Shown in pieces: positions 41-61,797 of a stretch of DNA of 64,000 bases (position 1 is its first letter; the number at the start of each line of letters is the position of its first letter). This DNA comes from Minisyncoccota bacterium. GTDB lineage: Bacteria > Patescibacteriota > Minisyncoccia > Phycocordibacterales > GWA1-40-21. The notes under the pieces were generated by a model. That model was not told where the DNA came from and did no database searches. It worked only from the letters and a program-made list of their open reading frames with translations. Location: contig JBAZRH010000002.1 in NCBI GenBank assembly GCA_041663045.1, forward strand, positions 7,179-71,178, in the 5' to 3' direction. A program made the translations under genes and the position numbers.

Positions 41-50
41 CAAAAATCAA

Positions 51-119
51 ACCCCGTCAGAAGTCTTCAATGTTTTAATTTATCTTTAATCACTAAGCGC
101 GTTGGACTTCTGACGGGGT
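51..119. repeat. 69-bp palindromic insertion (15-16-bp perfect terminal inverted repeats accccgtcagaagtc ... gacttctgacggggt) between the VR1 stop codon and the conserved GC hairpin
   Basis: It is absent from the otherwise identical VR2 3' flank (2836-2842 joins caaaaatcaa directly to atctcgagg). It forms a long hairpin and creates the TAA stop of gene 119..970. Confidence 0.7.
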
Positions 120-970
120 TAAATCTCGAGGAGGACAACACGATAAGCGGCAAGCCATGAATCGCCTAGCCAGTCCGCACTGCGAAGCCAACCCGACCCG
201 TCCCAACGCGCAGACGGAACAAACCAGTCGCCGCCGGAACTGCGAACGAGGGAACCGGGAAAATAGAACCATACATCCGTATCTTTCAAAGAGGGTGGTG
301 TCTTGGTCGGGTTTTCAGTAAGCCATTTCCAATATTCCAAACCGGGGATGTGGTGGGTACCAGAGTAAGTATCCGCTAGATGCTTAAAGACATCACAGAG
401 TGGTCTGCCGACAAAGGAGGACAGGTCTGGGATAAAGATTTTGGATTCCTGAATATTTTCGAAATCTATATTCTGCATGTCTGGATTCAACATGTATTCG
501 CCGAATTTATCAGTATCGGTATCATCTTTTAGAGCGGTGTAGTCTTGGTCTTCTGGCTTGATTAGGGTGGGAACAAACCCTTTTTCTGGTTTTCCAAAAA
601 GTCCTTCCAAAATAGCTTTGTTTTGAGAATTGAGAGAAGTAATATCTGGGACAGATTCTTGAGGCAGATCTTTATCGCTTGATAGCATTTCTTTTATTTT
701 ATCTATTTGCTTGTCTGCCCGCAAAAGATCCTTTTGCATCTCTAATTTTCTTTTTTCTCCACTTCCTTCTGGTTCACCCTCTTTGTCATCAAAATCGCCT
801 TTCTCCAGCATGTCTTCATAAATATCTATCTGTTCCAAAGCATAAAGGCGAATATTCTCCATCCGTTCCGAAAGAGCTTGGCGAAGCTCTTCTTGAGTTT
901 TCTCTGGTCTTTGGGATTTTTCTGGAGATTTACGGCCTTTAGCCATCTGGTTTATAGCTTCAAAATTCAT
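119..970 (-). CDS. DGR target protein 1: coiled-coil/charged N-terminus plus C-terminal C-type-lectin/FGE-like variable domain (ends AAYRVVLLEI); no signal peptide
   Basis: The C-terminal roughly 150 aa is homologous to the C-terminus of the 2840..5218 product. The last about 45 codons form VR1 (122-258). Confidence 0.8.
   Translation of the reverse strand: MNFEAINQMAKGRKSPEKSQRPEKTQEELRQALSERMENIRLYALEQIDIYEDMLEKGDFDDKEGEPEGSGEKRKLEMQKDLLRADKQIDKIKEMLSSDKDLPQESVPDITSLNSQNKAILEGLFGKPEKGFVPTLIKPEDQDYTALKDDTDTDKFGEYMLNPDMQNIDFENIQESKIFIPDLSSFVGRPLCDVFKHLADTYSGTHHIPGLEYWKWLTENPTKTPPSLKDTDVWFYFPGSLVRSSGGDWFVPSARWDGSGWLRSADWLGDSWLAAYRVVLLEI
122..258 (-). repeat. DGR variable region VR1
   Basis: Differs from TR (2341-2468) at about 25 positions. 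Essentially all of them are positions where TR has A on the coding strand (AAT/AAC Asn codons in TR become S, D, F, R, L, G codons here). Confidence 0.85.
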
Positions 971-1039
971 ACTAATATGATAACAAATTTAAATATAATT
1001 TAACAGGGTATGATTATAATCTTATAACTCATGGTCTTA

Positions 1040-1899
1040 GATTGCCAATCTTTTCTAGCAAATCTGTCTTGATCTTGTGGGTATTTCCATAACTCAATAA
1101 CCCTAAATATGATAAAACCACTTCCTCCTTTGTATCGGGGAAAATGGCTTGATACATTCTTATTTTTGTCCTCGTCCGTAAGACTCAATATTTCTCAAAA
1201 TGTACCCAACCGAGAAAATCTATTCCAGAGCTCGCGGTTTTTATAAATACCTTGTCCGGATGTAATTCTAATTTTAAATTCTCTGCTAGAAATAATTTCA
1301 CCTTAGGTATCAAACCTTCAAGCCACAACTTATCTCTGCGGTATACCCTTGAGAAAACTGTCTATGACCGTATGAATGACCTGAATAAATCTCGGACATA
1401 CTATATGCCGATCGATTATCTTTTTTAAAATCTGATGGTCAATAGAAGCAAAACATTTTCTAATATCACCCTTCAATATCCAGACGGTTTTGGTATTATT
1501 TAAGCCTTCTTTTCTGACAAAAGACTTAAACCTAGCCAGTGCCCGATGCGTCCCCTTTTCCAGACGACAAGAATATGAATCAAAAATAAAAAATCGGTCA
1601 AAATATGGATATACTGCCCGATAAATAGCGTGATGGACTATTCTGTCTTTGACTGTCGCTTTATGAATATCCCGCAGTTTTGGCTCTCTGATTTGAAAAA
1701 ACTTATATCCTCCGTGGCGATAGGTGCCATTCATAATTTCCTCTTTTAAATCAAAGATACTTCCTGATAGGTTAAGAAAGAAATCCGCAACATCTGCCTT
1801 TTTCTTTTTGCCGTTTCTGAATTCTAACCAACTTCTCATCAGAGATTGATAAGAGAAAATCTCTTCAAACTTGCCAGTGTATGTTTTATCTTTATGCAT
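1040..1899 (-). pseudogene. DGR-type reverse transcriptase, disrupted (frameshifts plus internal deletion removing the motif 4/5 YxDD region)
   Basis: ORF 1330..1899 encodes RT motifs 1-3 (YRHGGYKFFQIREPKLRDI, DRIVHHAIY, FIFDSYSCRLEKGTHRALARF, LKGDIRKCFASIDH) and then stops at GIPQR. A second frame continues DKLWLEGL..LKLELHPDKVFIKTASSGIDFLGWVHF (motifs 6/7). A third frame gives SYLGLLSYGNTHKI (DGR RT C-terminal motif). No YxDD can be found. Confidence 0.7.
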
Positions 1900-1914
1900 T
1901 ATAATAGCTAAATT

Positions 1915-2340
1915 ATGAATATTAAAAAGAAATCATTTTTACCGCCAAAAAAATTATCAGGGATAACATCAAATCTACTGGAAGCTTATGTCTTCTGGCA
2001 AAGTAAGACCAAACATATCCCCAAGATGCTCCGCTATTCCATGGGTGTGCGGATTGATTCTATTTTTGCGGAAATGATAGAGACAGTTTACATCGCAATA
2101 TTTACTTCTCCAGAAAAGAGAGCCCTCTTGATAGATAAGGCTAATACCAGAAATGATTTACTCAAATTCATGCTCAATGTCTTGTTTGAACTAAAAGGTC
2201 TGAAAGAAGACGCCTTCAGTGAAATCTCATTGAAAATGGAAGAGATCGGCCGAGTGCTATACGGTTGGAGAAATCAAGTGGAAAGACAAAACCAAAACGG
2301 TTCGACAAAAGCCGAACCTATTGGAAATGATAAAAAGTAA
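1915..2340 (+). CDS. avd: Avd-like accessory variability determinant (four-helix-bundle protein)
   Basis: 141 aa. The pattern IPKMLRYSMGVRIDSIFAEMIETVYIAIF ... KFMLNVLFEL ... EEIGRVLYGWRNQV matches the Avd / 23S-IVS four-helix-bundle family. Its stop codon abuts the TR. Confidence 0.65.
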   Translation: MNIKKKSFLPPKKLSGITSNLLEAYVFWQSKTKHIPKMLRYSMGVRIDSIFAEMIETVYIAIFTSPEKRALLIDKANTRNDLLKFMLNVLFELKGLKEDAFSEISLKMEEIGRVLYGWRNQVERQNQNGSTKAEPIGNDKK

Positions 2341-11165: not shown

Positions 11166-11254
11166 AAAATATTCGAATATTGTGAAAAATTAATCTCACA
11201 TAACAGGTTAAAACAATTGTGTATTTCTAAATTTCCTAATAAGAATCGGATAAT

Positions 11255-14800
<3,546 letters not shown>

Positions 14801-15113
14801 TAGGAAATTTAAAAACCACAATTATTCATCCGCCTACAAGACGGACAAATTTGTTTTAACCTGTTATGTAAAATCAATCGCGCAAAATGAATTATAAATA
14901 ATTCATCGCCCGACTCGTCACATAAACAGTATTTATATCTAACTATTTTCTTCAAGAAAAATAATTAGACTTACCTGCCTGTCTATAATATCTATAAAAG
15001 ACCCAAATCACCCTCTGGTGATAAATTGGTGATATTACGACAGCATGTGTCTCGATTAGAATGGTTATTTTATAACCTTTTTCTAACGAGAGTTATTTGT
15101 CAATTTACAATCT

Positions 15114-20395: not shown

Positions 20396-20476
20396 TAGCC
20401 TAACTATACCCCAAAATAGGCTTTTTTCAACCCAAAAATACCCAGTCTTTCTGGAAAGACTGGGTATTTTTGTTCT

Positions 20477-23316: not shown

Positions 23317-23940
23317 TTATCCCAAAACCTTCTCTATCAACTCTTTGTGAACTGCTTCTATAGTCTGCTCGCCATTTATGTCGAACACTTGGCAATCTTT
23401 ATCCTTATTGAAGAAATCTATGCAAGGTAAGACATCTTTCTCAAACCAAGACATTCTCTTATCAATACCCTCTGCAGTATCATCTTTTCTTCCTCTTGCT
23501 GTAAGTCTATCTGTACACCATTTCCTGCTTGTATTTATATAAATTACTTTATAATTTGGAATACCATAAAACTTCAACATAGCGTCAAGCAACTCTGCTT
23601 CATAAACTATTCTTGGTGCTCCATCAAAAAGCAAATTTTCTTTGCCGGAAAAATTCTTGACAAGATAATTTACCCAGAGGTCTAGAGCCATAGCTCCTGG
23701 CATAAGACCTCCTGATTCTACAACCTTTTTTGACAGAGATTGAGTATAAGAGTCTCCTTTTATAAACTCTCTGAAAAAAGCCCCCGTTTCAATATGTAGT
23801 ATTTTTGAGCCAGTTCTTTCTCCGAGAGACTTCTTAAATAACTCAACCTGTGTACCCTTACCACAACCTGATCTACCAATAAAAATAAAAGCCATCGGCT
23901 CGGCTTTTTTATCTTCCTTATTTTTAAATATATTCAACAT
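23317..23940 (-). CDS. adk: Adenylate kinase (divergent P-loop GRSGCGKGTQ)
   Basis: P-loop, LID-like RLTARGRKDDTAEGI segment, and conserved position after secY in the ribosomal cluster. Confidence 0.65.
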   Translation of the reverse strand: MLNIFKNKEDKKAEPMAFIFIGRSGCGKGTQVELFKKSLGERTGSKILHIETGAFFREFIKGDSYTQSLSKKVVESGGLMPGAMALDLWVNYLVKNFSGKENLLFDGAPRIVYEAELLDAMLKFYGIPNYKVIYINTSRKWCTDRLTARGRKDDTAEGIDKRMSWFEKDVLPCIDFFNKDKDCQVFDINGEQTIEAVHKELIEKVLG

Positions 23941-23989
23941 GAGAAGATTATAGCAATTTAAATTATAAATTCAAAGTTGGGGTTTCTGC

Positions 23990-24168
23990 TCTTCCGTAAG
24001 CGAATGAACATCCCCGCTTTTCTGTGTCCGCAGGCGAGCTTGCACGGTGCGATGTGGTGTAATTTTGCGAAGTGTATTCACGAGCAAAAGTATACCACAG
24101 CGCAAGCCGCCGAGGATTAGGAAATTTTCCGGCTGGGGAAAATTTCTGCACAGAAAAGCGGGGATGTG
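23990..24168. ncRNA. Unclassified structured-RNA-like element, copy 1 (19-bp closing stem acatccccgcttttctgtg / cacagaaaagcggggatgt around a conserved core)
   Basis: The core TCCGCAGGCGAG..GGCACGATGTGGTGTAATT..CACAGCG..CCGCCGAGGATTAGGAAA is shared with 43355-43535. All three helices differ between copies by compensatory changes. It fills the secY-adk intergenic gap. Confidence 0.45.
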
Positions 24169-24177
24169 AGTGAGCCT

Positions 24178-25449
24178 CTAATATTCCCTCATCGTTATCT
24201 GTGCCTCTATTTTTTTAATCAAATCAATAACGACAGATACTACGATAAGCAGGGCAGTACCACCGATAGCGATAGAAGTAATGCCCGTGATTCCTTTTAC
24301 AATAAGTGGCAAGACAGCGATAAAACCAAGGAATAATGCGCCTACGAGGGTGATCCTTGTGAGAACTTTTCCAAGATATTCTGATGTGGATTGACCGGGT
24401 CTTACACCTGGGATAAATGCTCCATTTTGCTGAAGATTCTTTGAAATCTGATCTGGATCAAAGGTGACTGCGGTGTAGAAATATGTAAACAAGAATACAA
24501 GAATAAAATATGATATGGCATATACCCAAGAATTTGATACAAAGTCATTCAATGTTCCGGCAACACCTCTTACTGTTGCATTGCTAGCCGCTGTGGCTAA
24601 AAAATTGAATATCATTTGCGGAAAGAGAAGAATAGACATCGCAAAGATAATCGGAATGACACCTGCCTGATTTACTCTCAAAGGTAGATATGTAGAAACT
24701 CCGCCATAAACTTTCGAACCCCTTATTCTCTTCGCATAAGTCACGGGTACGGGCCTTTCCGCTTCCGAGACAACCACAACTCCATAAATTACTAGAAGTG
24801 CTCCTACAATGAAAAGTATATACATCGGTATTTGGGAAATATCAAAAGATAAAGTCATCTGACTTATCTGCGTAGGCAAACTCGCCACAATACCTGCAAA
24901 AATAATCATTGATGTACCGTTTCCGATACCAAATTCAGTCATAAGCTCACCGATCCATGTAAGAAGCACAGAGCCGGCTGTTATAACCATAATATTTGTA
25001 AGCATACTCATAAAATCTAGGTTTGTTATAACTCCAGATTTTGCAAGAAGGGTCAAAAAACCAAAACCTTGCATGAAAGCGATAGGTACGGTAAGCAACC
25101 TTGAATATTGTGTGAATTTCTTTCTGCCGGCCTCACCTTCTTCCTGATACATTGCCTTGAGTTTCGGAACCATCATGGTCAAAAGCTGCATAATAATAGA
25201 TGAGGTGATGTATGGACCAACTCCGAGCATCATTATGGAAAGATTGCTCATTCCTCCGCCTGAAAATATGTTCAAAAATCCTAAAAATTGATTTCCAGAA
25301 AATAGCGTAGAAAGCTTAGCCGCATCTATACCCGGTATAGGAATAGTAGCCAAAAGTCTAAAAATCACTAATGCGCCCGCGACAAATAAGATCCTGTTTC
25401 TTAGGGTTTTATCCGAAAAAATCATTTTTATTTTATTCCAAAAGTTCAT
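24178..25449 (-). CDS. secY: Preprotein translocase subunit SecY
   Basis: 423 aa with 10 TM segments and typical SecY N-terminus; sits after rplO. Confidence 0.9.
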   Translation of the reverse strand: MNFWNKIKMIFSDKTLRNRILFVAGALVIFRLLATIPIPGIDAAKLSTLFSGNQFLGFLNIFSGGGMSNLSIMMLGVGPYITSSIIMQLLTMMVPKLKAMYQEEGEAGRKKFTQYSRLLTVPIAFMQGFGFLTLLAKSGVITNLDFMSMLTNIMVITAGSVLLTWIGELMTEFGIGNGTSMIIFAGIVASLPTQISQMTLSFDISQIPMYILFIVGALLVIYGVVVVSEAERPVPVTYAKRIRGSKVYGGVSTYLPLRVNQAGVIPIIFAMSILLFPQMIFNFLATAASNATVRGVAGTLNDFVSNSWVYAISYFILVFLFTYFYTAVTFDPDQISKNLQQNGAFIPGVRPGQSTSEYLGKVLTRITLVGALFLGFIAVLPLIVKGITGITSIAIGGTALLIVVSVVIDLIKKIEAQITMREY

Positions 25450-28303: not shown

Positions 28304-29782
28304 CTATGGAGATACCGCACACTGACTAGTACCCGAGTCACAAAAGTTAGAAGCACAACTTGCATTATTGAAACAATAAGCACCTATAGCTCCATCAGTA
28401 CATACGTAATCGGCACTACCTCCGCAATATAGATTTGATTGACAATCGCTTGTCTGTGTACATACACCTCCTAAGGGTACGAGGGCTGCGGCACAAACGC
28501 TACCACTACAGTTTTCTGATTGACATTGATTATTGGCAGAGCAGGAACCTCCGACTGGTTTGAATCCTCGGGTATAAATATCTAATATCTCGTCTGCGGT
28601 GAGGGCGCGGGACCAGATGGCAATATCGGCCATACTACCGGTGAGATACCCACTGAAACTCCCTGGATTTCCAGCAACTCCAAAATGGATTACTCCAGTA
28701 TAAGTCGTGGCTACTGTTTGATTTACTGTCTCTATAAATACTCCGTCAAGATAAACATCCATGTGTTGGTTGTCTCGATAATTTACTGAAATAAGGTGCC
28801 ATGTATTATCCGACATATTTGGATGCGTGCTTATTGCAGAACACGAAACCCACACTTTACAAATCACTGCTTGGAGAGTACTGCCCGTGTAAGATATACC
28901 AGATTGAAGACTCCCGCTACTGGCTGGATTGTAAAAACCGAGCAAATTAGTGTTAGCGACAGAAAGACTGCTTTTATTGAACCAAAAACTAACGGAGTGA
29001 CTGTTAGCTGAAGAAAGAGATACCTGGCTTGAATCAAAAACACTTGTCCCATCAAAACTCCCCGCCTGTGCACCATTGAAACCGTTTGTATATGTCCCTG
29101 TCCACGTCCCATCATTGCCATTCCCCGATGAATCTGTGGAATCTCCATTTAGCTTCCACCAACCTACAAGAGCAGGATCGGTGTAGGGATCAATATATGT
29201 CCCTGCCACTCCCATATATGTTGTCCCTGAGTTGATATTGGCTGCATTTAGAGTTGCTTTGAATGCTACCAGGGCATCATAGATTTCTGTAATGGAGTAC
29301 ATAGTAGCGTTGACTGCATTACTTGTGGTAAGGGTATGGGAGGAGGAAAGGACTCTGGTATAGGGTGATACTGCAAGGTTGTAAATGTCTGCTAGAGAGT
29401 AGCCTGTGGCTGTACCTTGGTCTGTGGTGGGGTAGAGAGAAGAGGAGGAAGCAGAGACTGTCGTAGGAACAGCATCGCCTGATGTTATACCTAAGTAAGT
29501 AGTGCCTGATTTAATATTGTTGGGATTTATGAGATTGGCTAAGAGAGCGTAGATTTCTCCAATAGAGTGGGAGGTAGTAGCTGTAGCTTCTGTAGTAGTA
29601 GAGAGTGTGTGATTACCTGCTGTGGCTTCAGTACCTGCGGTTAATATATTGTAGAGGTCGTTGAGAGTGTAAGATGTGGGAAGGGGGGTGGCAGAAGGGG
29701 TGAGAGAGCCAGCTATAACTACGACAGTGAGAATACCGAGGGAGAAGAGAGTATAAAGAAGTGTACGTTTAAATTTAGGCAT
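28304..29782 (-). CDS. Secreted/membrane-anchored LamG (concanavalin-A-like lectin) domain protein with Cys-rich C-terminal repeats, inserted inside the ribosomal-protein operon
   Basis: N-terminal hydrophobic anchor, three IY-repeat motifs, and a LamG signature LVGWWKLNGDSTDSSGNGNDGTWTG...FDGTS...SFWF...MADIAIWSRALTADEI. The C-terminus carries 14 Cys in C-x5-C-x3-C-type spacing. Confidence 0.7.
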   Translation of the reverse strand: MPKFKRTLLYTLFSLGILTVVVIAGSLTPSATPLPTSYTLNDLYNILTAGTEATAGNHTLSTTTEATATTSHSIGEIYALLANLINPNNIKSGTTYLGITSGDAVPTTVSASSSSLYPTTDQGTATGYSLADIYNLAVSPYTRVLSSSHTLTTSNAVNATMYSITEIYDALVAFKATLNAANINSGTTYMGVAGTYIDPYTDPALVGWWKLNGDSTDSSGNGNDGTWTGTYTNGFNGAQAGSFDGTSVFDSSQVSLSSANSHSVSFWFNKSSLSVANTNLLGFYNPASSGSLQSGISYTGSTLQAVICKVWVSCSAISTHPNMSDNTWHLISVNYRDNQHMDVYLDGVFIETVNQTVATTYTGVIHFGVAGNPGSFSGYLTGSMADIAIWSRALTADEILDIYTRGFKPVGGSCSANNQCQSENCSGSVCAAALVPLGGVCTQTSDCQSNLYCGGSADYVCTDGAIGAYCFNNASCASNFCDSGTSQCAVSP

Positions 29783-33722: not shown

Positions 33723-35276
33723 TTATTCAATATCATAAAAAACTTTTGCCAACACCTTTACACCCCAGACTGGCAAACCAAAAAACTTCCTCCAAAAACC
33801 ACCGGTTGAGCTCGCTTCGTCAAAAGTAGACACCGCCTCGGCAACAGAAGCCACTTGGATATTCTTTATTGAAGGAATGTCCCCGTCCGGCTTAGATGGT
33901 GATTTAGGCCCTGTATTGATATCTTTATTAACAGCCATTTGAGATGCAAAAACTCTCTTAAACTCTGTAATAAAATCATCCGCTTGTGCTTTTGTTATTT
34001 CAACGTCATCAGACTTGGTCTTAGTATCAATCGATATTTGTGATGAGGTTGCAACCGTAATCGATGAACTAATTTTAGAGATTAAGGAGCCAGATGGATC
34101 AAAAAGTGATATAACAATATTTCCAGAATCCACTCTTGAATAATCTTTTGAAATTACCACCTCCTTCCCTGCTCCTATAATAGTATCTTCTGGTATTTCA
34201 AAACTTCCCGAATCTCCGCGTACCTTCCAGTCACCAAGATTTATCTCTGTCTTGCCCATATTTGAAAATCTTAAATCACCAGATGGGAGATAAGAAAAGG
34301 CGATTTCTGGTCTTAATATCTTAACAACCGTCCTAGAAACAGAATTCCTTGTCCCACAAGAGCCGTTTAAGACAATATTATATTCACCGGGGTATATATA
34401 TGTATGATTCACTTCTGAACCAATATTTTTGGTCCCATCTCCGAAAGACCAAGAAAAGGTTGGCGTTCCACATTCTGAGACTTTAGAAGTCTTATATTTT
34501 GCCAAGAATTTTATAGGCGTACCGACATAGGACACTCTTTCTCTGCCTGCTGAAATATCGAATGTTGAATTTTCTTCATAATCACTCAATTCTTCTGGAC
34601 TTGAATGTACAGAAACATATCTTATAGCGGTCTTTGTGATTGTTTGTGTACTCTGATTTGTATTGCTTGTGCTCGTCGAAGTCTCTTTTTCAGTATTCTC
34701 TGTTGTAGTTGCAACATTTTCTGTGGTAGTAGCGTTTTCAGAAGCAGTATTTTCTGCGCCAGGAGTCGGGATAGCAGAAATCCATACGCCATTAACCTTT
34801 TGCAATGATTTACCGTCTCCTTTCGCCCCAATAGAGATATCATAATTTACAGAATCCACTATTGTCCCCGCTTCATTTTTCAACGACAATAACTCGCCTT
34901 CATTGCTAAGAGAAAAAGTACTATCAAAAAGTAAACCGTTATAATCTGGAAAGTTAGTTCTAAATTTTGAAGGATTATCCGCAATAACAGCATAACCTAT
35001 AGAACCTAAAATACTGTTGCCGTCTGAAGCAATTACTCCGTGATTAGTATTAGCCTCAGAAAGTTTAACTTTTGTAATATCTAAGTCCTCATTACTAGAG
35101 TTAAATACTTCTATCCATTCTCTGTCTGTATCTGACCCATCTACATCATACATAATTTCATTAATTTGAAGAGTGGCCGACACATGTCGGGCAAATGAAA
35201 AACCAGTCAATATTAAAATCATAATAATGAAGAATCTACTATATCTTTTGGGCATAATTGAGAAACATTTTACCAC
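33723..35276 (-). CDS. Secreted lamin-tail-domain (LTD) protein
   Basis: Signal anchor, then LQINEIMYDVDGSDTDREWIEVFNSSNEDLDI (LTD signature), a T/S/N-rich linker, and a beta-rich C-terminal domain. Confidence 0.65.
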   Translation of the reverse strand: MVKCFSIMPKRYSRFFIIMILILTGFSFARHVSATLQINEIMYDVDGSDTDREWIEVFNSSNEDLDITKVKLSEANTNHGVIASDGNSILGSIGYAVIADNPSKFRTNFPDYNGLLFDSTFSLSNEGELLSLKNEAGTIVDSVNYDISIGAKGDGKSLQKVNGVWISAIPTPGAENTASENATTTENVATTTENTEKETSTSTSNTNQSTQTITKTAIRYVSVHSSPEELSDYEENSTFDISAGRERVSYVGTPIKFLAKYKTSKVSECGTPTFSWSFGDGTKNIGSEVNHTYIYPGEYNIVLNGSCGTRNSVSRTVVKILRPEIAFSYLPSGDLRFSNMGKTEINLGDWKVRGDSGSFEIPEDTIIGAGKEVVISKDYSRVDSGNIVISLFDPSGSLISKISSSITVATSSQISIDTKTKSDDVEITKAQADDFITEFKRVFASQMAVNKDINTGPKSPSKPDGDIPSIKNIQVASVAEAVSTFDEASSTGGFWRKFFGLPVWGVKVLAKVFYDIE

Positions 35277-37774: not shown

Positions 37775-37805
37775 GACAAAGAAAAAATCCGCCTTTCGGC
37801 GGATT
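37775..37805 (-). terminator. Intrinsic terminator after the 1235-aa surface protein gene (aaaaaatccgcc tttc ggcggatttttt)
   Basis: 7-bp stem flanked by A and T runs; bidirectional. Confidence 0.6.
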
Positions 37806-37869
37806 TTTTCTTAACCTATTCTTCTATAGCGAATTCCTATAGATAGAACCACAAGAGGTTTTGTTAATT

Positions 37870-42389: not shown

Positions 42390-43220
42390 CTAGGACAAGT
42401 AATATTTAGACCATCTACGCTCACCCTCTTTCTTTAAGACACCTTTTAAGACTAGGGCCAAAAGTTCTCTCTGAATTGTCTTTTCACTGCAATCTTTTAT
42501 GTTTTGAGCAAAATCCTTTATAGTTAGGTGCAATCCACTCTTTAGCATTGAAACTATAATGTTTTGTCTGTTATCTTTGTCCTTTATATTCTTTTCTGTG
42601 GGACTCTTTTTCATATCGGTCATTTTGTTAAAGACAGAGCTATTATGGTTGTCCTTTATGTCCTTCTGTCCTTTATAAAAATCTCCTGAATTTCCCGCCA
42701 ACCCTTTCTGTCCATCTAATGTCCTGCCCTGATAAGTCTGAGTCGGGATAAAATTATAGTCTCCGTCAAAGAGATTGCTACCAAAAGCAATCTTGGCGGA
42801 GGACATATTCTTGGACGAACTAGATATAAATTCAGCCAGTTTATCAAATTCATTTGTAATAATTACATAATTGACTTCGGAAATCATACTGCTTATTTTT
42901 GTAATATTTAACATTGAAAACATCTCCCCGATTGAGACTAGGATCTCTTTATTAATACCATCTTCACCCCACACCCTATCGGACAATGCTAGGACTTTAA
43001 AAAGAAGGGTGTTCGCTGACTCTCGGAGATTCCATTTTAGAGCTTCCCTATCGGACAAATAATTGGTCAGGAGATAGATACCAGCAACAAGTCTCTCTGT
43101 CTTTTTATATATAAAAAGGCCATAAGAATCATCACCAAAGATTAAACTGGCATCAACCTTTTTTATAGCCGTCTTTTGATTATTTGGATCTATTTGATTA
43201 TTGTTATTTTGATTATCCAT
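42390..43220 (-). CDS. Hypothetical protein with C-terminal winged-helix-like segment
   Basis: 276 aa with an Asn-rich N-terminus; C-terminal EKTIQRELLALVLKGVLKKEGERRWSKY. Confidence 0.4.
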   Translation of the reverse strand: MDNQNNNNQIDPNNQKTAIKKVDASLIFGDDSYGLFIYKKTERLVAGIYLLTNYLSDREALKWNLRESANTLLFKVLALSDRVWGEDGINKEILVSIGEMFSMLNITKISSMISEVNYVIITNEFDKLAEFISSSSKNMSSAKIAFGSNLFDGDYNFIPTQTYQGRTLDGQKGLAGNSGDFYKGQKDIKDNHNSSVFNKMTDMKKSPTEKNIKDKDNRQNIIVSMLKSGLHLTIKDFAQNIKDCSEKTIQRELLALVLKGVLKKEGERRWSKYYLS

Positions 43221-43354: not shown

Positions 43355-43535
43355 AAGTTGACAGTAAGTGTATAACTACTTTTGTTGTGTCCGCAGGCGA
43401 GTTTGCTTGGCACGATGTGGTGTAATTATGCCGAGTGTAATCACAAGGCATAATTATGCCACAGCGGAAACCGCCGAGGATTAGGAAACTCTCCGCAGGA
43501 GAGAGTTTCCGCACAACAAAAGTAGTTATACACTT
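43355..43535. ncRNA. Unclassified structured-RNA-like element, copy 2 (26-bp closing stem caagtgtataactacttttgttgtg / cacaacaaaagtagttatacacttg)
   Basis: Same conserved core as 23990-24168. The closing stem, central hairpin and 3' hairpin have different sequences but preserved pairing. Confidence 0.45.
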
Positions 43536-43612
43536 GCTTGAAAATTATTAAAGGGCTGTGATGTGAAGAGAAGGGAGAAAAAAGTTAAAAAATTTGTTAT
43601 AATTTAAGTATC

Positions 43613-45883
43613 ATGGCTATCAAACAAAAAGAAAAAAATGAAAAGAGAACCGGCCTATGGCACGGTGTAAAAAATGAAACAAAACAAGGAATCTGGGCGG
43701 TAACCTTTTTTGTCCTTGCGGCAATTTTTACCCTAGCATCTCTTTCTAAAGCAGGAGTCGTGGGTGATAAGATTTATTATATACTTTCTGTTTTATTGGG
43801 TATTGGATATTTCCTAATTCCCCTTTTCTTTTTTCTTCTATCTGTCTCATTCCTGAAAGCTGAGGAAAGAGAATTTAATAAACTAAAAGTCACTGGTGGA
43901 ATATTTTTCTTTATTTCTGGACTTGGTCTCATAGATCTCGTCTCAAAGACGTACTGGATAGCACAAGGTGGAAAGATCGGTTGGCTCATCTCCACTCCCC
44001 TTCTAAAACTATTCGGTTTCTATGCTAGCACCATTATCCTTGTCGCTGTACTTATTATCTCCTGCCTTGTACTTTTTGAGACAAAGTTAACTGTCGAATC
44101 GATATTGTTCTGGAGAAAATGGAAGAAAACTGAGAAAGAAGGAGTAGAGAATAAAATGGATATGAAAAAGCTCCGAGTCACAAAAGGAGAAGATAACTCT
44201 GAAGAAGAGACGGAGGACGTAGAAAGAGTCGAGAAAGCAAAAAGGCAAGTTAGGGCTGTTGTTGTAAGAAAGTCTGAAGAAGAGGAAGAATTTAAAATGA
44301 CCCCAAGAGCTGTGGGCAACACACAATACACTCCCCCTCCACTATCCCTGCTTGAAAATGACAAAGGCAAGCCAGGAGTTGGTGACATAAAAGCAAATGC
44401 AAATATTATAAAACGTACACTACAGAATTTCGGTATTGATGTAGAAATGGATGAAGTCTCTATCGGCCCATCTATCACAAGATATGCATTTAAACCCGCA
44501 GAGGGCATGAAACTTTCAAGAATAGTCGGCTTACAAAATGACCTCGCCCTTGCTTTAGCAGCTCATCCACTTAGAATCGAAGCTCCTATACCAGGTAAAT
44601 CACTCGTAGGTATTGAAATACCAAATACAGTAAAATCTATCGTAGGCCTTGCCTCTCTTATCGGTACTGAAGAATTCCAGAAATCGGAAAAGCCCCTTAT
44701 GATCACCCTAGGAAAAGGTATTTCCGGTAAATCACATTATGCAAACTTGGCTAAAATGCCCCATGTTCTTGTGGCAGGATCGACCGGTTCCGGTAAATCT
44801 GTCACAATTCACACTATCATCACTTCCCTACTTTATAGGAATTCCCCAGAGAATCTTAAATTCATAATGATAGACCCAAAGCGTGTGGAACTTACCTTGT
44901 ACAATAAAATCCCTCATCTTTTAACACCAGTTATCACAGAAGCCAAGAAAACTATCCTCGCTTTGAAATGGGCGACAAAAGAAATGGATCGCAGATATGA
45001 TATTTTAGAAGCAGAAGCATGTAAAGATATAGATTCATATCATAAAAACATTCTCTCTCCGGAGTTGAAGAAAATAGAGGAACTCAAGAAAAAGGGACAA
45101 TATGACCCAGAGAAACATACAGCACCAGAGCTTATGCCTTACATCATTGTCGTTATAGACGAGCTTGCTGATATTATGATGTCTTACCCGAGAGAACTTG
45201 AATCTGCCATAGTTCGTCTCGCACAAATGTCACGTGCCGTCGGTATTCACCTCATACTCTCAACACAAAGACCTTCCGTAAATGTTATTACAGGGCTTAT
45301 TAAAGCAAATGTTCCTGCAAGAATAGCCCTTCAGGTGGTATCGCAGGTTGATTCAAGAACTATTCTAGACACAAGCGGTGCAGAAAAACTCCTTGGTGCC
45401 GGAGACATGCTTTATCTCGGTGGAGAAATGTCAAAGCCCGTAAGAATCCAGTCAGCCTTTATCTCTGAAGCAGAAGTCAAGGGGGTTGTAAAATATTTAG
45501 TAAATGCATATAGGGATGAGCTTATTGGCGGAGAATTAAACCTTACACCTGAATCTGTCGGCGGAGAAAACAGCGACGCCCTCGGCTCCATGCTTGAGGC
45601 CGGAGAGATGGGTGAAGACGACGACATGTATGAACAAGCGAAAGATGAGGTTATAAAAGCTGGCAAGGCTTCCACTTCATATATTCAAAGAAAGTTGCGC
45701 CTAGGATACGCTAGGGCAGCAAGAATTATGGATATGCTTGAACAAAGGGGTATTATAGGTCCGGGCGATGGTGCCAAGCCAAGGGATGTACTCGTAGGAA
45801 GTGCAGCCGAAGCAGAAGAAAATAAGTTGAAAGAGCAAATAGCAGAAGCTGGAGTGGAACATAAAGATGGAGATTATCTATGA
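43613..45883 (+). CDS. ftsK: DNA translocase FtsK/SpoIIIE
   Basis: N-terminal TM helices; motor domain VLVAGSTGSGKSVTIHTII, IIVVIDELADIM, LILSTQRPSV; C-terminal gamma winged helix YIQRKLRLGYARAARIMDMLEQRGII. Confidence 0.9.
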   Translation: MAIKQKEKNEKRTGLWHGVKNETKQGIWAVTFFVLAAIFTLASLSKAGVVGDKIYYILSVLLGIGYFLIPLFFFLLSVSFLKAEEREFNKLKVTGGIFFFISGLGLIDLVSKTYWIAQGGKIGWLISTPLLKLFGFYASTIILVAVLIISCLVLFETKLTVESILFWRKWKKTEKEGVENKMDMKKLRVTKGEDNSEEETEDVERVEKAKRQVRAVVVRKSEEEEEFKMTPRAVGNTQYTPPPLSLLENDKGKPGVGDIKANANIIKRTLQNFGIDVEMDEVSIGPSITRYAFKPAEGMKLSRIVGLQNDLALALAAHPLRIEAPIPGKSLVGIEIPNTVKSIVGLASLIGTEEFQKSEKPLMITLGKGISGKSHYANLAKMPHVLVAGSTGSGKSVTIHTIITSLLYRNSPENLKFIMIDPKRVELTLYNKIPHLLTPVITEAKKTILALKWATKEMDRRYDILEAEACKDIDSYHKNILSPELKKIEELKKKGQYDPEKHTAPELMPYIIVVIDELADIMMSYPRELESAIVRLAQMSRAVGIHLILSTQRPSVNVITGLIKANVPARIALQVVSQVDSRTILDTSGAEKLLGAGDMLYLGGEMSKPVRIQSAFISEAEVKGVVKYLVNAYRDELIGGELNLTPESVGGENSDALGSMLEAGEMGEDDDMYEQAKDEVIKAGKASTSYIQRKLRLGYARAARIMDMLEQRGIIGPGDGAKPRDVLVGSAAEAEENKLKEQIAEAGVEHKDGDYL

Positions 45884-47354: not shown

Positions 47355-47440
47355 ATACAAAAAGGGCGGGCGTTTCGCACCCGCCTCTTGTATAAGAATT
47401 TACAAAAAGAAAACTGCCGCTCGTAATGACACGGCAGTTT
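47355..47440 (+). terminator. Two tandem intrinsic terminators after recA (gggcgggcg tttcgcac ccgcc; ctgccg ...cggcag tttt)
   Basis: GC hairpins followed by T-runs on the plus strand. Confidence 0.55.
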
Positions 47441-48267: not shown

Positions 48268-48345
48268 TCCTCCCCGATTGTCATTCCGGCGTAGGCCGGA
48301 ATCCAGACTTTTCTGATTCCTGGATCCCATTCTTCAATGGGATGA
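48268..48345. repeat. Cloverleaf-like four-stem element, copy A (closing stem ttgtc/gacag; hairpins attccggc-gtag-gccggaat, ccag..ctgg, tccca..tggga)
   Basis: A second copy at 61712-61797 has the same closing stem and junctions but covarying hairpin stems. Confidence 0.5.
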
Positions 48346-48378
48346 CAGAAGAGGGGTTTCGCGAAGCGAAACCCCTCT
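48346..48378. terminator. GC hairpin gaggggtttcgc gaa gcgaaacccctc with a 3' T-run (plus strand); lies between efp stop and element A
   Basis: 12-bp stem visible in the sequence, followed by tttctttat. Confidence 0.5.
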
Positions 48379-50275: not shown

Positions 50276-50414
50276 CGGGAGAATATGATCCTTTGTAGGC
50301 GAGCGAAATAGTATCCTTTTTGGAGACTCTCGGAATGCGACGGCATGAGAGGGAGCAAATTTTCAGCAGAAAATTATGCGTGCTCCAAAAAGGATACTGT
50401 TGAGCGAGCCTATT

Positions 50415-52299: not shown

Positions 52300-52379
52300 A
52301 TATTCCTCCTGTTTTGTCTGTTTCCTTACAATGTTCTTCTAATAATCAAACTACCAGAGAATCAAAATATGTCAAATCA

Positions 52380-52412
52380 AAGTGGCGGGCGACCGAAGGT
52401 CGTCCGCCACTT
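52380..52412 (-). terminator. Intrinsic terminator after glyQS (agtggcgggcgacc gaag gtcgtccgccact)
   Basis: Long GC stem right after the glyQS stop codon. Confidence 0.55.
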
Positions 52413-52418
52413 TGATTT

Positions 52419-57449: not shown

Positions 57450-60400
57450 TTAATTTATCTTAATCGTCATCTTCATTCCCTCTATCACCACTTCCTTTCC
57501 ATCTTTTACTTCCCCAAATTTTATATCTTTCAGCCCTGTGACTTTTTTTATTTCAGCCGAATATTTTTCCAAAATCTTCTTGCCAACTTCATCTGTATCT
57601 ACAACAAGCCCGACAATATCATTAGGATTCAATTTACTTTCTTTTCTCAATTCTTGTATCGAGCGGACAATATCTCTCATCATTCCTTCTTCTTTTAGCT
57701 CTGGGGTAATATTCGTATCAAGTTCGAAGGGTGCTCCATCTTGTGATATGTTTTCATCTAGAACAACTTCTTTAACATTTACTTCGTCTCTTATTATAGG
57801 AGATACTTCATCCCAGAAATTAGGTTTTTTTAAAGAGTGTTTAATTGTTAGTCTAGCCAGAGGCTGGCGAACTTTTATTCCAAGCTCTGCACGTTTCATT
57901 AATGCCATATTGACATAGCTTCTCGCCAGGCTCATCGTGGCGAGAATATCTTTCTCTTCTTGAGAAAGCTCCACCACATACTCCTCCGGCCAGCTGTCCA
58001 AATGCACACTGAGCTTTTCACCGCCGATTTTTTTATACAAATCTTCCGCCAAAAACGGCATCGATGGTGCAATAAGCTTCGACAATGTAAGTATCACTTC
58101 TTTCGTGGTCGCTATTGCCGAATCTCGGTCTGCTAAATCATCTGACTTGAATCTATCGCGTGATCTCCTCAAATACCACGTCGAAAGGTCTTCCACAAAA
58201 TCATTTATCGGCCAAGTGGCTCTATCAAGCTCGTATTTTTCGGTAGAATTCGTCATTTGCAAAGCTGTCTCTTTCAATCTCGCCAAAACCCATTTATCCA
58301 AGATATTTTTTGTCTCTTGTTTTTCGCTTTTCGTTTTTCGTTTTTCGTTTTCTGTGTACATCTCATAGAAAGAATAAACATTTTGCAATCTCATTATCAC
58401 TTTCTTCACCACTTCATCCACGCCTTTGTCCGAAAAATACAAATCCTGCGCCTTTATAACCGGCGAGGAAAGTAAATAATATCTCATGGCATCGGCACTG
58501 TATTTGTCCACAAGAAGCATCGGAGCTGTATAATTCTTTAATCTCTTGGCCATCTTTTGACCATCCTCTGCAAGCACAATACCGTTTACCACCACATTTT
58601 TATATGAAGCTTCGCCAAAAAGCGCGACAGAAAGCACGAGCATAGAGTAAAACCATCCTCTTGTCTGATCAAGACCTTCAGCGATGAAATCTGCTGGATA
58701 TCCAATACCCTTTTCCGGATTAAACTTTTTCAAATCACCAAATGGATAATGCGATTCTGCATAAGGCATCGAGCCCGACTCAAACCAGCAATCAAAAACT
58801 TCCGGTATGCGACGCATTTTGTCTCCGCAAGCGCAAGCCATTTCCAATTCATCTATAAACGGTCTGTGCAAATCCAATTCATGATTCCTATTGTGCGGAA
58901 TCGGGGCAAATTGCAATTCTTTCACTTCACCATTGTATACAAAAGGCTTGCCTGCTTCTCTTACCGCCATCAATTCTTTTGGTGTCATACCCACCGCTCC
59001 ACCAAACATAAGCCAAATAGGAGTATTATGGGAAACTATCAAGATTTTCTTTCCTTCATGCTTCTGATTTATTTCATATAAGAAATCCGTCATCCTCTTT
59101 TTGACTGCCATATAATTCTCTCCCCCTTCCGGTGTTTTCCAAAACTTCGCTTCACGCGATTCGAAAAATGCCTGATATTCCGCATCCGGTTTACCGTCAA
59201 GCACTCCCACAAATATTTCATGTAGACGAGAGTCATAAACAATTTTATCTTTTGAATATCCAATACCGTCGGCGATGATCTCTGCAGTTTCTTTTGTTCT
59301 CAAAAATGGAGAGCAATATATAATATCGATATCGGTCTTAGATTTCTTCAGATTTTCTCCCGCTTCCTTCGCCTGTTCTCTGCCATTGTCCGTAAGATGA
59401 TGCTGGGTCTTTGGATTTGAACTCAAAATTCCCAAGACATTGCTTTCCGCCTCGCCGTGTCTTACAACAAAAAATCTATTATCTCTTGTCGTTTTCTTTT
59501 TTATATCATCTATCGAGCCGACAAATATTTTACCTTCGCATTTATTACATCTCCATACAGGGAGCGGTGCGCCCCAGAATCTTGAACGAGAGATTGCCCA
59601 GTCGCGAGCGCCTTCAAGCCATTTGCCGAATCTCCCCTCACCGATTTCGGGTGGAACCCACTTTATTTCCTGATTAGCTTTTATCAAATCACTTTTTATC
59701 TTTGTAACTTCCACAAACCAAGAGCTCGAAGCGTAATTTATGAGCGGAGTGTCGCATCTATAGCAATGCGGATATGAATGCGTGAATTTTTCTTTCGAGA
59801 AAATCGTCCCCGCTTTTGCAAGATATTTTATAATTTCAATATCGGCTTTTTGCGGATCTTCTTTTGGTTTCACTTGTCCGGAAAAATCTTTGACTTCATG
59901 CTTAAATGCACCGTCCATACCAACATGCTGAATAAAGGGAAGTTTCTTTTCCCTACCAAGATTCATATCGTCTTCACCAAAAGCTGGAGCAATGTGCACG
60001 ATACCCGTGCCGTCTTCTGTCGTCACAAAATCCGCTCCGTAAACTTTGAAACCGTTTTCTTTATTTTTTAATTTATCATTATTGTAATAATCAAAAAGAG
60101 GTTTGTAAGATTTGCCGACAAGTTTTTTACCAGAAACTTTTTCTAGTATCTCGTAAGGTTCTTTGATTATTCCAAGCCTGGATTCCGCGAGAATATAATT
60201 CTCCTCACCCATTTTTATCTTCACATATTCTATATCTGGATTCACCGCCAAAGCGACATTTCCCGGCAAAGTCCAAGGGGTGGTCGTCCAAGCCAAAAAG
60301 AAGGTTTGGGGCTCGTCTAGAAGCTCAAATTTGGCCGTCACAGAGATGTCGGTGATATCCTTGTATCCTTGACTGACTTCAAAATTCGACAGTGTTGTAC

Positions 60401-60986
60401 CGCATTGTGGGCAGAGATGCATAGATTTAAAACCCTCGTAAACTAGCCCTTTTTCTTGTAGTTTTTTGAAAGCCCACCAAACACTTTCTGTGTATGAAGA
60501 ATCCATCGTCCTGTAATCATTTTCCATATCCACAAAACGCCCCATTCTCGGAACAATTTTCTTCCAATCATTTACATAAGTAAAAACTTTTGATCGCGCA
60601 AGATCATTAAATTTCTCCAAACCAAAATCTTCAATATCTTTTCTTGATTTGAGGCCGATTTCTTCCTGAACAATATTTTCCACCGGCAATCCGTGGCAAT
60701 CCCAACCCCAACGCCTCGGCACGTGGTATCCGCGCATAGTTTTATATCTACCGACAAAGTCTTTCATCGTGCCGGCAAGAATATGTCCAAAATGTGGAAG
60801 ACCTGTGGCAAATGGAGGTCCGTCATAGAAAACATACTCGCCTTTCGGCGCTTCTTTTTCCAGAGTCTTTTCGAAAATTTTATTTTCCTGCCAGAATTTC
60901 AGGACTTCTTCTTCTTTCAATGCGAGCTTAGATTTATCACTAGCCTTTTGAGCTTTATCTTCGCCCATCGCTTTATTCACTTTCAT
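57450..60986 (-). CDS. ileS: Isoleucyl-tRNA synthetase with an inserted histidine-phosphatase (RHG / PGM-like) domain
   Basis: HIGH motif (PHFGH), KMSKS, editing domain, and Zn knuckles (CYRC, CNKC, CAC). Between CNKC and the DVWFDSG-equivalent (EVFDCWFESG) lie about 210 aa. This insert carries FVVRHGEAESN near its start and LIVSHNTPI near its end, the two catalytic-His motifs of the histidine phosphatase superfamily. Confidence 0.8.
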   Translation of the reverse strand: MKVNKAMGEDKAQKASDKSKLALKEEEVLKFWQENKIFEKTLEKEAPKGEYVFYDGPPFATGLPHFGHILAGTMKDFVGRYKTMRGYHVPRRWGWDCHGLPVENIVQEEIGLKSRKDIEDFGLEKFNDLARSKVFTYVNDWKKIVPRMGRFVDMENDYRTMDSSYTESVWWAFKKLQEKGLVYEGFKSMHLCPQCGTTLSNFEVSQGYKDITDISVTAKFELLDEPQTFFLAWTTTPWTLPGNVALAVNPDIEYVKIKMGEENYILAESRLGIIKEPYEILEKVSGKKLVGKSYKPLFDYYNNDKLKNKENGFKVYGADFVTTEDGTGIVHIAPAFGEDDMNLGREKKLPFIQHVGMDGAFKHEVKDFSGQVKPKEDPQKADIEIIKYLAKAGTIFSKEKFTHSYPHCYRCDTPLINYASSSWFVEVTKIKSDLIKANQEIKWVPPEIGEGRFGKWLEGARDWAISRSRFWGAPLPVWRCNKCEGKIFVGSIDDIKKKTTRDNRFFVVRHGEAESNVLGILSSNPKTQHHLTDNGREQAKEAGENLKKSKTDIDIIYCSPFLRTKETAEIIADGIGYSKDKIVYDSRLHEIFVGVLDGKPDAEYQAFFESREAKFWKTPEGGENYMAVKKRMTDFLYEINQKHEGKKILIVSHNTPIWLMFGGAVGMTPKELMAVREAGKPFVYNGEVKELQFAPIPHNRNHELDLHRPFIDELEMACACGDKMRRIPEVFDCWFESGSMPYAESHYPFGDLKKFNPEKGIGYPADFIAEGLDQTRGWFYSMLVLSVALFGEASYKNVVVNGIVLAEDGQKMAKRLKNYTAPMLLVDKYSADAMRYYLLSSPVIKAQDLYFSDKGVDEVVKKVIMRLQNVYSFYEMYTENEKRKTKSEKQETKNILDKWVLARLKETALQMTNSTEKYELDRATWPINDFVEDLSTWYLRRSRDRFKSDDLADRDSAIATTKEVILTLSKLIAPSMPFLAEDLYKKIGGEKLSVHLDSWPEEYVVELSQEEKDILATMSLARSYVNMALMKRAELGIKVRQPLARLTIKHSLKKPNFWDEVSPIIRDEVNVKEVVLDENISQDGAPFELDTNITPELKEEGMMRDIVRSIQELRKESKLNPNDIVGLVVDTDEVGKKILEKYSAEIKKVTGLKDIKFGEVKDGKEVVIEGMKMTIKIN

Positions 60987-61711: not shown

Positions 61712-61797
61712 TTCAATAGCTTGTCATTCCCGTGGAAACGGGAATCCAGTTCTGGCTTCTGGATCCCAGATCTAGTCTGGGATGACAGAAAAGAAAT
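61712..61797. repeat. Cloverleaf-like four-stem element, copy B
   Basis: ttgtcattcccgtggaaacgggaatccagttctggcttctggatcccagatctagtctgggatgacag has the same architecture as 48268-48345. It lies between the argS stop and the GC-rich segment. Confidence 0.5.

Follow-up and report, generated by a model that had tools for sequence, protein, structure and literature searches.

ERIC or IRU sequences of enterobacteria, imperfect palindromes about 127 bp long for which no transposase is known, are conserved across species more strongly than the genes beside them and occupy different locations. In the Correia repeat enclosed elements (CREE) of Neisseria the terminal repeats are conserved and 26 bp long, accompanied by duplication of TA. 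CREE and other bacterial MITEs form a long hairpin when transcribed, and their presence at a given site varies between strains (PMC2649163, PMC2229807, PMC10969869). REP sequences and REPINs are long extragenic hairpins with strand-specific features that a RAYT transposase encoded elsewhere moves in trans; they are long-lived and often lie just after stop codons (PMC3116915, PMC3337134). For CPR bacteria, our literature search found no earlier account of dispersed repeats or of structured RNAs. Their genomes are tiny and tightly packed, yet they carry foldback repeats that come and go, as described here for an element first seen in two copies in the window, which is the whole 64-kb stretch of DNA that was analysed. 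On balance, we read this element as a new family of non-coding dispersed foldback repeats, a small and probably non-autonomous mobile element resembling MITEs, REPINs and ERIC sequences, with hosts in Candidatus Paceibacterota and in a small number of CPR genomes besides.

Copies in the window and elsewhere

Copy 1 is antisense to its neighbours secY (stop codon at 24178-24180, -) and adk (23317-23940, -), and 2 nt separate its end from the secY stop codon. Copy 2 lies between two divergent genes, a 276-aa ORF (42390-43220, -) and ftsK (43613-45883, +). The positions given to the two elements in the original prediction were right to within a few bases (Table 1), and the gene context described there is backed by Pfam matches for SecY, Adk, FtsK and RecA. 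The common core that had been proposed is also real: by alignment the copies share about 80 % identity overall and about 80-85 % in the core, and the 18-mer CCGCCGAGGATTAGGAAA is found at two places in the window and no others, where chance predicts 0.02 occurrences. The element is no assembly artefact, because an independent Logan assembly reaches into copy 1, inside which it stops; a copy elsewhere (L099) is likewise present in an independent reassembly.

Both copies fold into a common Y shape, with folding z-scores of -9.9 for copy 1 and -13.0 for copy 2. The order is a long closing stem (P1), two C-G pairs, GCA, a long irregular hairpin (P2), GA..AUUA and a hairpin P3, and in copy 2 the P3 loop CCGCAGG is a repeat of the 5' junction motif. 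The closing stems had been described as long and perfect, with 19 and 26 bp. This holds for copy 1, with a perfect 19 bp (24008-24026/24149-24167), whereas the stem of copy 2 has 27 bp including one G·U (43363-43389/43512-43538). P1 of copy 1 extends further outward, to 24000-24001/24174-24175, via the end motif, which consists of two tandem G·A pairs with 2 bp between them. The covariation of inner helices that had been noted between the two copies is present.

Table 1. Positions of the elements, their parts and other features of the window
Feature	Positions	Strand	Remarks
Copy 1 (win1), whole element	24000-24175	+	176 nt; 149 bits with CM R1
Copy 1, 5' end motif	24000-24007	+	GC-GA-AU-GA; pairs with 24168-24175 (GA-GU-GA-GC)
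Copy 1, P1 5' arm	24008-24027	+	Perfect 19 bp plus a U·G pair; partner 24148-24167
Copy 1, core	24028-24147	+	CC (24028-29)/GG (24114-15), junction GCA, P2, junction GA..AUUA, P3
Copy 1, P2 (long hairpin)	24033-24111	+	
Copy 1, P3 (hairpin)	24120-24147	+	
Copy 2 (win2), whole element	43363-43538	+	176 nt; 152 bits with CM R1
Copy 2, core	43391-43510	+	P2 43396-43475; P3 43484-43510
win3, shorter element of the same design	50296-50412	+	30-bp stem, 57-nt three-way core
adk promoter-like site	23947-23974	-	TTGAAT, 16 nt, TG-n-TATAAT; conserved in relatives lacking the element
Plain hairpin terminator after recA	47355-47400 (approximate)	+	GGGCGGGCG..CGCACCCGCC
REP-like paired hairpins	48279-48347, 61722-61787		TGTCATTCC..GGAATCCAG .. 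CTGGATCCC..GGGATGACA
Perfect 22-bp palindrome without loop	37702-37745		TGGATAATAAAAGACCACCCCA / TGGGGTGGTCTTTTATTATCCA
Further long perfect palindromic terminators	20433-20472, 37779-37812, 52374-52418		
DGR-like locus	119-2340		Weak reverse-transcriptase ORF (1330-1899, -) next to a bAvd-like gene (1915-2340, +)
Hairpin at the DGR-like locus	50-120		Perfect, 16 bp
23S rRNA gene	11233-14804	-	3572 nt against a 2925-position model; several large insertions
Palindrome among the 23S rRNA insertions	14477-14527		25-bp arms
Two large surface-protein-type ORFs	28304-29782, 33723-35276	-	Inside the ribosomal-protein gene cluster; one LamG-like, the other Lamin-tail + PKD
Class I aminoacyl-tRNA synthetase	57450-60986	-	1178 aa; histidine-phosphatase domain within the catalytic domain (residues 506-672)

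The shorter element win3 has a stem that starts GGC-GA-GC-GA / GA-GC-GA-GCC, hence with the doubled tandem G·A and GAGCGA on both arms. An M16 peptidase gene has its stop codon 2 nt away from win3, which lies upstream of rpsF and has the same orientation as copies 1 and 2. The P3 and 3' junction of win3 share 85 % identity with L099 over 34 nt; with filters off it scores only 6.9 bits against our covariance model, so that it is no more than a putative member of the family.

The further homologs that the original prediction called for were found: there are 13 copies in six CPR assemblies, two of them in the window (L-numbers denote loci that carry copies, or the counterpart loci of relatives). 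When species-representative genomes were scanned with a two-block pattern, nine of the 51 matches proved true. The remaining 42 were due to chance, in GC-rich genomes, one being an alphaproteobacterial leader upstream of a gene starting MALPEF, which we take to be rpsB. A single MAG, bin-744, holds five copies (L089, L090, L107, L109, L124); a MAG labelled Saccharibacteria holds three (L100, L101, L123) and a second MAG so labelled holds one with a quite different P2 (L099). A metagenome scan added L135, together with an identical re-assembly of L099, and a protein search led, via a spurious ORF, to a degenerate copy (L138). All copies are non-coding and intergenic, with sizes from 176 to 260 bp; these 13 form a small sample, in which several copies from one genome are closely related. 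A covariance model built from 11 of them (CM R1) recovered only the two copies when run on the window with filters off, and no further copies in about 170 kb of CPR sequence. A 14-mer search of viral contigs returned 83 matches, all of them chance, and BLAST against plasmids and phages gave no match to the element. The family is real but rare, very rare indeed across 596 Gb of genomes and a metagenome collection.

Minus-strand ORFs of 62 and 78 aa cross both copies and might encode a small protein. We give this next to no credence, as the frames and stop codons differ between the copies, the substitutions follow base pairing and not codons, and a profile of the translated minus strand searched against 5.8 billion proteins returned one spurious ORF, over copy L138.

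Known RNA classes fare no better. Rfam at its gathering threshold, applied to the window and nine loci, returned nothing relevant (the window passes only for 23S and 5S rRNA), relaxing it to E ≤ 1-10 for four element regions gave only sub-threshold microRNA noise, and ARAGORN found no tRNA or tmRNA; the earlier statement that the element matches no tRNA, 6S, SRP, tmRNA or riboswitch is thus upheld. The same searches bear on a mobile RNA (a self-cleaving ribozyme, an intron-like RNA or a retroelement RNA) that would spread by an RNA intermediate, possibly with a resident reverse transcriptase. The three-way junction, its conserved nucleotides and the variable stems would suit such an RNA, as would the genes for bAvd and for a reverse transcriptase like those of diversity-generating retroelements (DGR) in the same window. 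However, no Rfam ribozyme or intron matched at E ≤ 1-10, no reverse transcriptase is linked to any copy, and nothing needs splicing since the elements are intergenic, which together make this a very improbable explanation.

Fold, strand and evolution of the arms

Across the family, a conserved three-way-junction core is combined with a fast-evolving closing stem and a tandem-G·A end motif. The core reads ...CCGCAGGCGA, long hairpin P2, CGCCGAGGAUUA(A)GGAAA, hairpin P3, and P1 ranges from 19 to about 65 bp. The covariation claimed from two copies is also seen in a larger alignment: among 12 copies, in an alignment that was itself fitted to the model, standard pairs fill 97.2 % of the cells and 25 of the 46 pairs show double-sided changes. 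None of 500 shuffles did as well, and sliding the partners lowered pairing to 36-55 %. All three helices show covariation. In the same alignment G·U occupies 34 cells and C·A 6, and 11 of the 12 copies retain one particular G·U in P2.

The plus-strand fold is more stable than that of the minus strand in all 13 elements, by 1.7 to 17.7 kcal/mol. At the base of P1 the tandem G·A is doubled in copy 1 (GAAUGA/GAGUGA), L109 (GAAUGA/GAAUGA) and win3 (GAGCGA/GAGCGA), and single in L089, L107 and L135 (CGAG/CGAG); in L090 and L124 Watson-Crick pairs take its place. The folded strand is the plus strand, because on the opposite strand the tandem G·A would become pyrimidine-pyrimidine mismatches. The folded molecule could be RNA or single-stranded DNA, between which G·A pairs do not distinguish. 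The GA-NN-GA end motif is a direct repeat on one strand and not an inverted one, and neither GNRA nor UNCG loops occur in the elements. The plus strand of the window has a negative GC skew, which by itself gives no rule linking the element to a replication strand.

These properties raise the question of a structured non-coding RNA family with several gene copies, whose plus-strand transcript would be released from the stem, for instance by RNase III, and would act via the junction, perhaps as a binding site for a protein. Pairing would be all that is required of the stem, which would then drift with compensation. The covariation in every helix, the retained P2 G·U, the excess of G·U over C·A, the constant strand preference and the tandem G·A kept at the stem base all speak for an RNA of this kind, and so do the core, which is better conserved than protein genes, and the recurrence of CCGCAGG in the junction and the P3 loop. 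By the same token the conserved G·U, the retained tandem G·A and the strong covariation, being functional-RNA traits, count against a mobile repeat. We nevertheless regard a non-coding RNA gene as rather unlikely, in view of its absence from the same sites in close relatives, positions that differ between genomes, its rarity in the 596 Gb of genomes and the metagenome collection, the lack of both a conserved upstream promoter and GNRA or UNCG loops, and signatures of template switching in the stems.

The same asymmetric fold may instead be a single-stranded DNA substrate similar to REPINs, IS200/IS605 ends or attC sites, for cleavage by an HUH or tyrosine enzyme whose gene lies in another part of the genome; the fixed mismatches and the same-strand GA..GA would be recognised by it, and the core would be conserved as a result. 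We hold this to be unlikely. The 5'-GA-NN-GA direct repeats on both arms have the geometry of same-strand cleavage, the structure is strand-asymmetric, the three window elements share one orientation, and REPINs are long hairpins too and owe their movement to a single-copy gene acting in trans (PMC3116915). On the other side, no HUH or tyrosine enzyme was seen in the DNA examined, REP arms are conserved while their spacers vary, which is the opposite pattern, and neither consensus boxes of attC type nor arrays of cassettes are present. Moreover, with a stem of varying length, the core has no means of gauging how far away the ends lie.

How the arms evolve affects the weight that covariation can carry. 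The closing stems of the two window copies had been called unrelated in sequence. This does not hold, for all copies have one layout of the P1 5' arm, namely end motif, variable block, T-run and short inner block, and on this basis the P1 stems are to be seen as diverged homologues. Old, diverged copies still pair almost perfectly. In L090, whose sisters L089 and L107 are near-identical, a GA→TC double change gives Watson-Crick pairs in place of G·A and a perfect stem, and L124 carries a similar multi-base conversion. The inverted repeat of L107 measures 52 nt, and its 3' arm is an inverted copy of the last recA codons and stop (GAGATTTAA / TTAAATCTC), a sequence for which copying from the side of recA is the only possible origin. 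The inverted repeats of L089 and L090 reach 66-68 nt, and their outermost arms are copy-specific yet self-complementary.

Template switching is known to homogenise and expand the arms of inverted repeats and can mimic compensatory change (PMC7202029, PMC13100816, PMC8794818). Some of the stem covariation looks like the product of such switching in DNA, and since template switching creates apparent compensatory changes, covariation is weaker evidence for an RNA function than it would otherwise be. The original prediction had taken conserved structure with changing stem sequence for the hallmark of a functional RNA; that argument loses force where part of the arm complementarity bears template-switching signatures.

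The arm of copy 1 at 24149-24167 reads AGAAAAGCGGGG and resembles the A-run and first arm (AGAAAAGGCGGG) of the terminators of relatives (L139:2239-2256 and the 3' end of L140), and a possible remnant of the second terminator arm (GCAGAAACCCC) lies just beyond copy 1. This likeness to a native terminator could be chance or captured host sequence. Capture of the arms from host terminators is at odds with the relatives that have no hairpin at the win3 site, and with the arm layout common to the copies.

Gain at intergenic sites and relation to genes

The secY-adk spacers of relatives, 97 nt in L139 (SecY 91 % identical) and 75 nt in L141 and L142 (84 %), lack the element. They contain a perfect palindromic terminator (AAAAAAGGCGGGTTTTGC / GCAAAACCCGCCTTTTTT) together with the same TG-n-TATAAT promoter of adk; in the window this terminator is gone, copy 1 stands in its position, and the adk promoter-like site follows just downstream in the direction of transcription. 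Similarly, win3 is absent from the M16-rpsF spacers, of 64 and 72 nt, of relatives whose M16 peptidases are 89 % and 83 % identical. After recA the situation is reversed, with a copy directly behind the gene in bin-744 (L107) and a simple hairpin in the window. Upstream of ftsK, the window has copy 2 and bin-744 a different long-stem element. CM R1 found no copy in short stretches of relatives' DNA amounting to about 31.7 kb. Window and bin-744 share 95.7 % identity in the core, as compared with 79 % in recA and 70 % in ftsK at the DNA level.

The long-stem element upstream of ftsK in bin-744 (L107:5326-5504, -), in the same place as copy 2 in the window, belongs with L124:997-1075 to a second, unrelated family, in which the two copies have a 79-nt core with 94 % identity and arms that differ.

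From these comparisons the element is a gained insertion and not a resident gene. Being multi-copy, variable in site and better conserved than host genes, it behaves as a mobile or horizontally moving repeat. The contention that it is a functional RNA rather than a MITE is not supported, the element being missing at the same sites in relatives and placed at different sites between genomes. The contrary possibility, a mobile element with terminal inverted repeats, is borne out in large part as regards mobility, without classical conserved terminal repeats. Other observations weigh against a mobile repeat. No transposase, reverse transcriptase or recombinase adjoins any copy among the ORFs scanned, and conserved terminal inverted repeats and a clear target-site duplication were not found. 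The candidates for target duplication read off the flanks of copies 1 and 2 are short and AT-rich (TAA, TTGA), with empty sites too diverged for comparison, as are the flanks in relatives for fixing an exact insertion point.

For ten of the 12 tabulated elements a stop codon is no more than 25 nt away, and the gene it ends is a housekeeping gene wherever Pfam gave a match. Six elements overlap or abut their gene by -9 to +2 nt, namely those at secY (copy 1), the M16 peptidase gene (win3), mreB (L109), ftsZ (L100), fusA (L123) and a glycosyltransferase gene (L124). All six genes are antisense to the element, and those at L107 (recA) and L099 are in sense. Overall, 6-7 of the 9 abutting genes run antisense to their element, a trend of 6-7 to 2 that is not statistically significant. 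No neighbouring protein recurs, and the unannotated neighbours are unrelated to each other.

In many copies an A-run precedes the stem and a T-run follows it, as in native bidirectional terminators, which in these genomes are long perfect palindromes. On the plus strand, a T-run follows the stem in about 6-7 of 13 copies, and at copy 1 and win3 the mRNA strand has no U-tract. A role as terminator is plausible at some sites and is not general. REP-like paired hairpins recur between genes in the genome of the window and in bin-744 (L090:1620-1686 and 1972-2000), where they flank the element of L090 on both sides.

Copy 2 lies outside any obvious transcript, upstream of a likely -10 box of ftsK, recognised in the sequence some 8 nt ahead of the ATG; a promoter search there gave only a weaker overlapping site (TTAAAA-18-TATCAT). 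No conserved promoter motif was found upstream of the copies. As a separate observation, extended -10 boxes (TG-n-TATAAT or TGTGCTAAT) occur about 7-10 nt before the ATG of adk, ftsK and rpsF (in the window at 23947-23952 and about 43597-43605) and are kept in relatives (L139, L141, L144, L145), which suggests that these mRNAs are leaderless or near-leaderless.

Copies are thus gained at new intergenic sites, mostly a few bases from a stop codon and upstream of the next promoter. If the element is a mobile repeat, its spread would be rare and brought about by an enzyme that recognises the folded plus strand as single-stranded DNA or RNA, with the three-way-junction core and the G·A motif of the ends as presumed recognition features. 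Once inserted, the giant hairpin may be tolerated, or may take on a function at transcript ends, as an insulator or in processing. Arm complementarity would be kept both by selection for the fold and by template switching during replication, which homogenises and extends inverted repeats; the arm conversions described above go some way towards showing this. The non-coding RNA and the single-stranded DNA recombination substrate are less probable but live readings and overlap with a mobile repeat; a structured recombination site was also the alternative offered in the original prediction. It is also conceivable, if doubtful, that junction and G·A motif mark out structured mobile elements of a type not described before, here in CPR bacteria, recognised through the folded strand (RNA or single-stranded DNA) and not through terminal DNA repeats, homing to the gap between stop codon and promoter and taking terminator positions, or else a new RNase III-processed non-coding RNA that spreads as a gene cassette.

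Should the junction turn out to be the recognition site of a new mobilising enzyme or RNA-binding protein, the mechanism would be new. These repeats land beside essential genes (secY, recA, ftsZ, mreB, fusA) and can replace a terminator. They also call for caution in genome scans, as compensatory stem changes here coexist with signs of mobility and template switching.

Comparison with known systems

The element fails the defining tests for MITEs, REPINs, attC sites, retrons and every Rfam family. As in MITEs, it is small, non-coding, multi-copy and intergenic, and present or absent at a given site between related genomes; conserved terminal inverted repeats were not found, the arms differing between copies. 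A conserved REP pair around a variable spacer, as in REPIN/RAYT systems, is not seen either, the pattern being reversed, and no RAYT gene (Y1 HUH type) was present in the DNA examined (the 64-kb window plus loci of 1.5-8 kb). The attC boxes R''/R' (RYYYAAC / GTTRRRY) are absent from the element, which ends in GCGAAUGA / GAGUGAGC, and in place of cassette arrays there are single copies amid housekeeping genes. The reverse transcriptase directly downstream that marks a retron is missing, the neighbours being secY, adk, ftsK, mreB, ftsZ, fusA and recA. As to a non-coding RNA gene, covariation supports the fold, though the alignment was model-fitted and template switching can mimic compensation, and syntenic presence in related genomes was not observed. 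A search of the window for the empty target motif GCGA-NN-GAGC and similar motifs gave only chance matches in coding sequence.

Likeness to known systems is nonetheless considerable. Rfam RNAs, retrons and attC sites also have a closing stem formed by the ends around internal hairpins, and a structure conserved above sequence; the element differs from retrons in having no adjacent reverse transcriptase, and from attC sites in having neither R/L boxes nor arrays. With palindromic intrinsic terminators it shares the terminator position after secY and recA and, in many copies, the flanking A-run and T-run, but it holds a 120-nt structured core in the 'loop' and has no mRNA-strand U-tract at copy 1 and win3. 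ERIC/IRU sequences resemble it in a core better conserved than host genes and in sites that differ, whereas no sequence relationship is known, the phylum is different, and ERIC is a simple hairpin where the element has a three-way junction. CREE and bacterial MITEs are alike in their size of ~100-200 bp, their non-coding, multi-copy and intergenic nature, and the combination of an inverted repeat with a conserved core; in contrast to CREE, the arms of the element differ between copies, only the short G·A end motif is common to them and no target duplication is evident. In REPINs it is the arms that are conserved and the spacer that varies; the element shows the reverse, a conserved centre between variable arms. 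Set against the Correia and MITE pattern as well, the most conserved part of the element is its centre and not its ends, the reverse of a classical MITE or REPIN.
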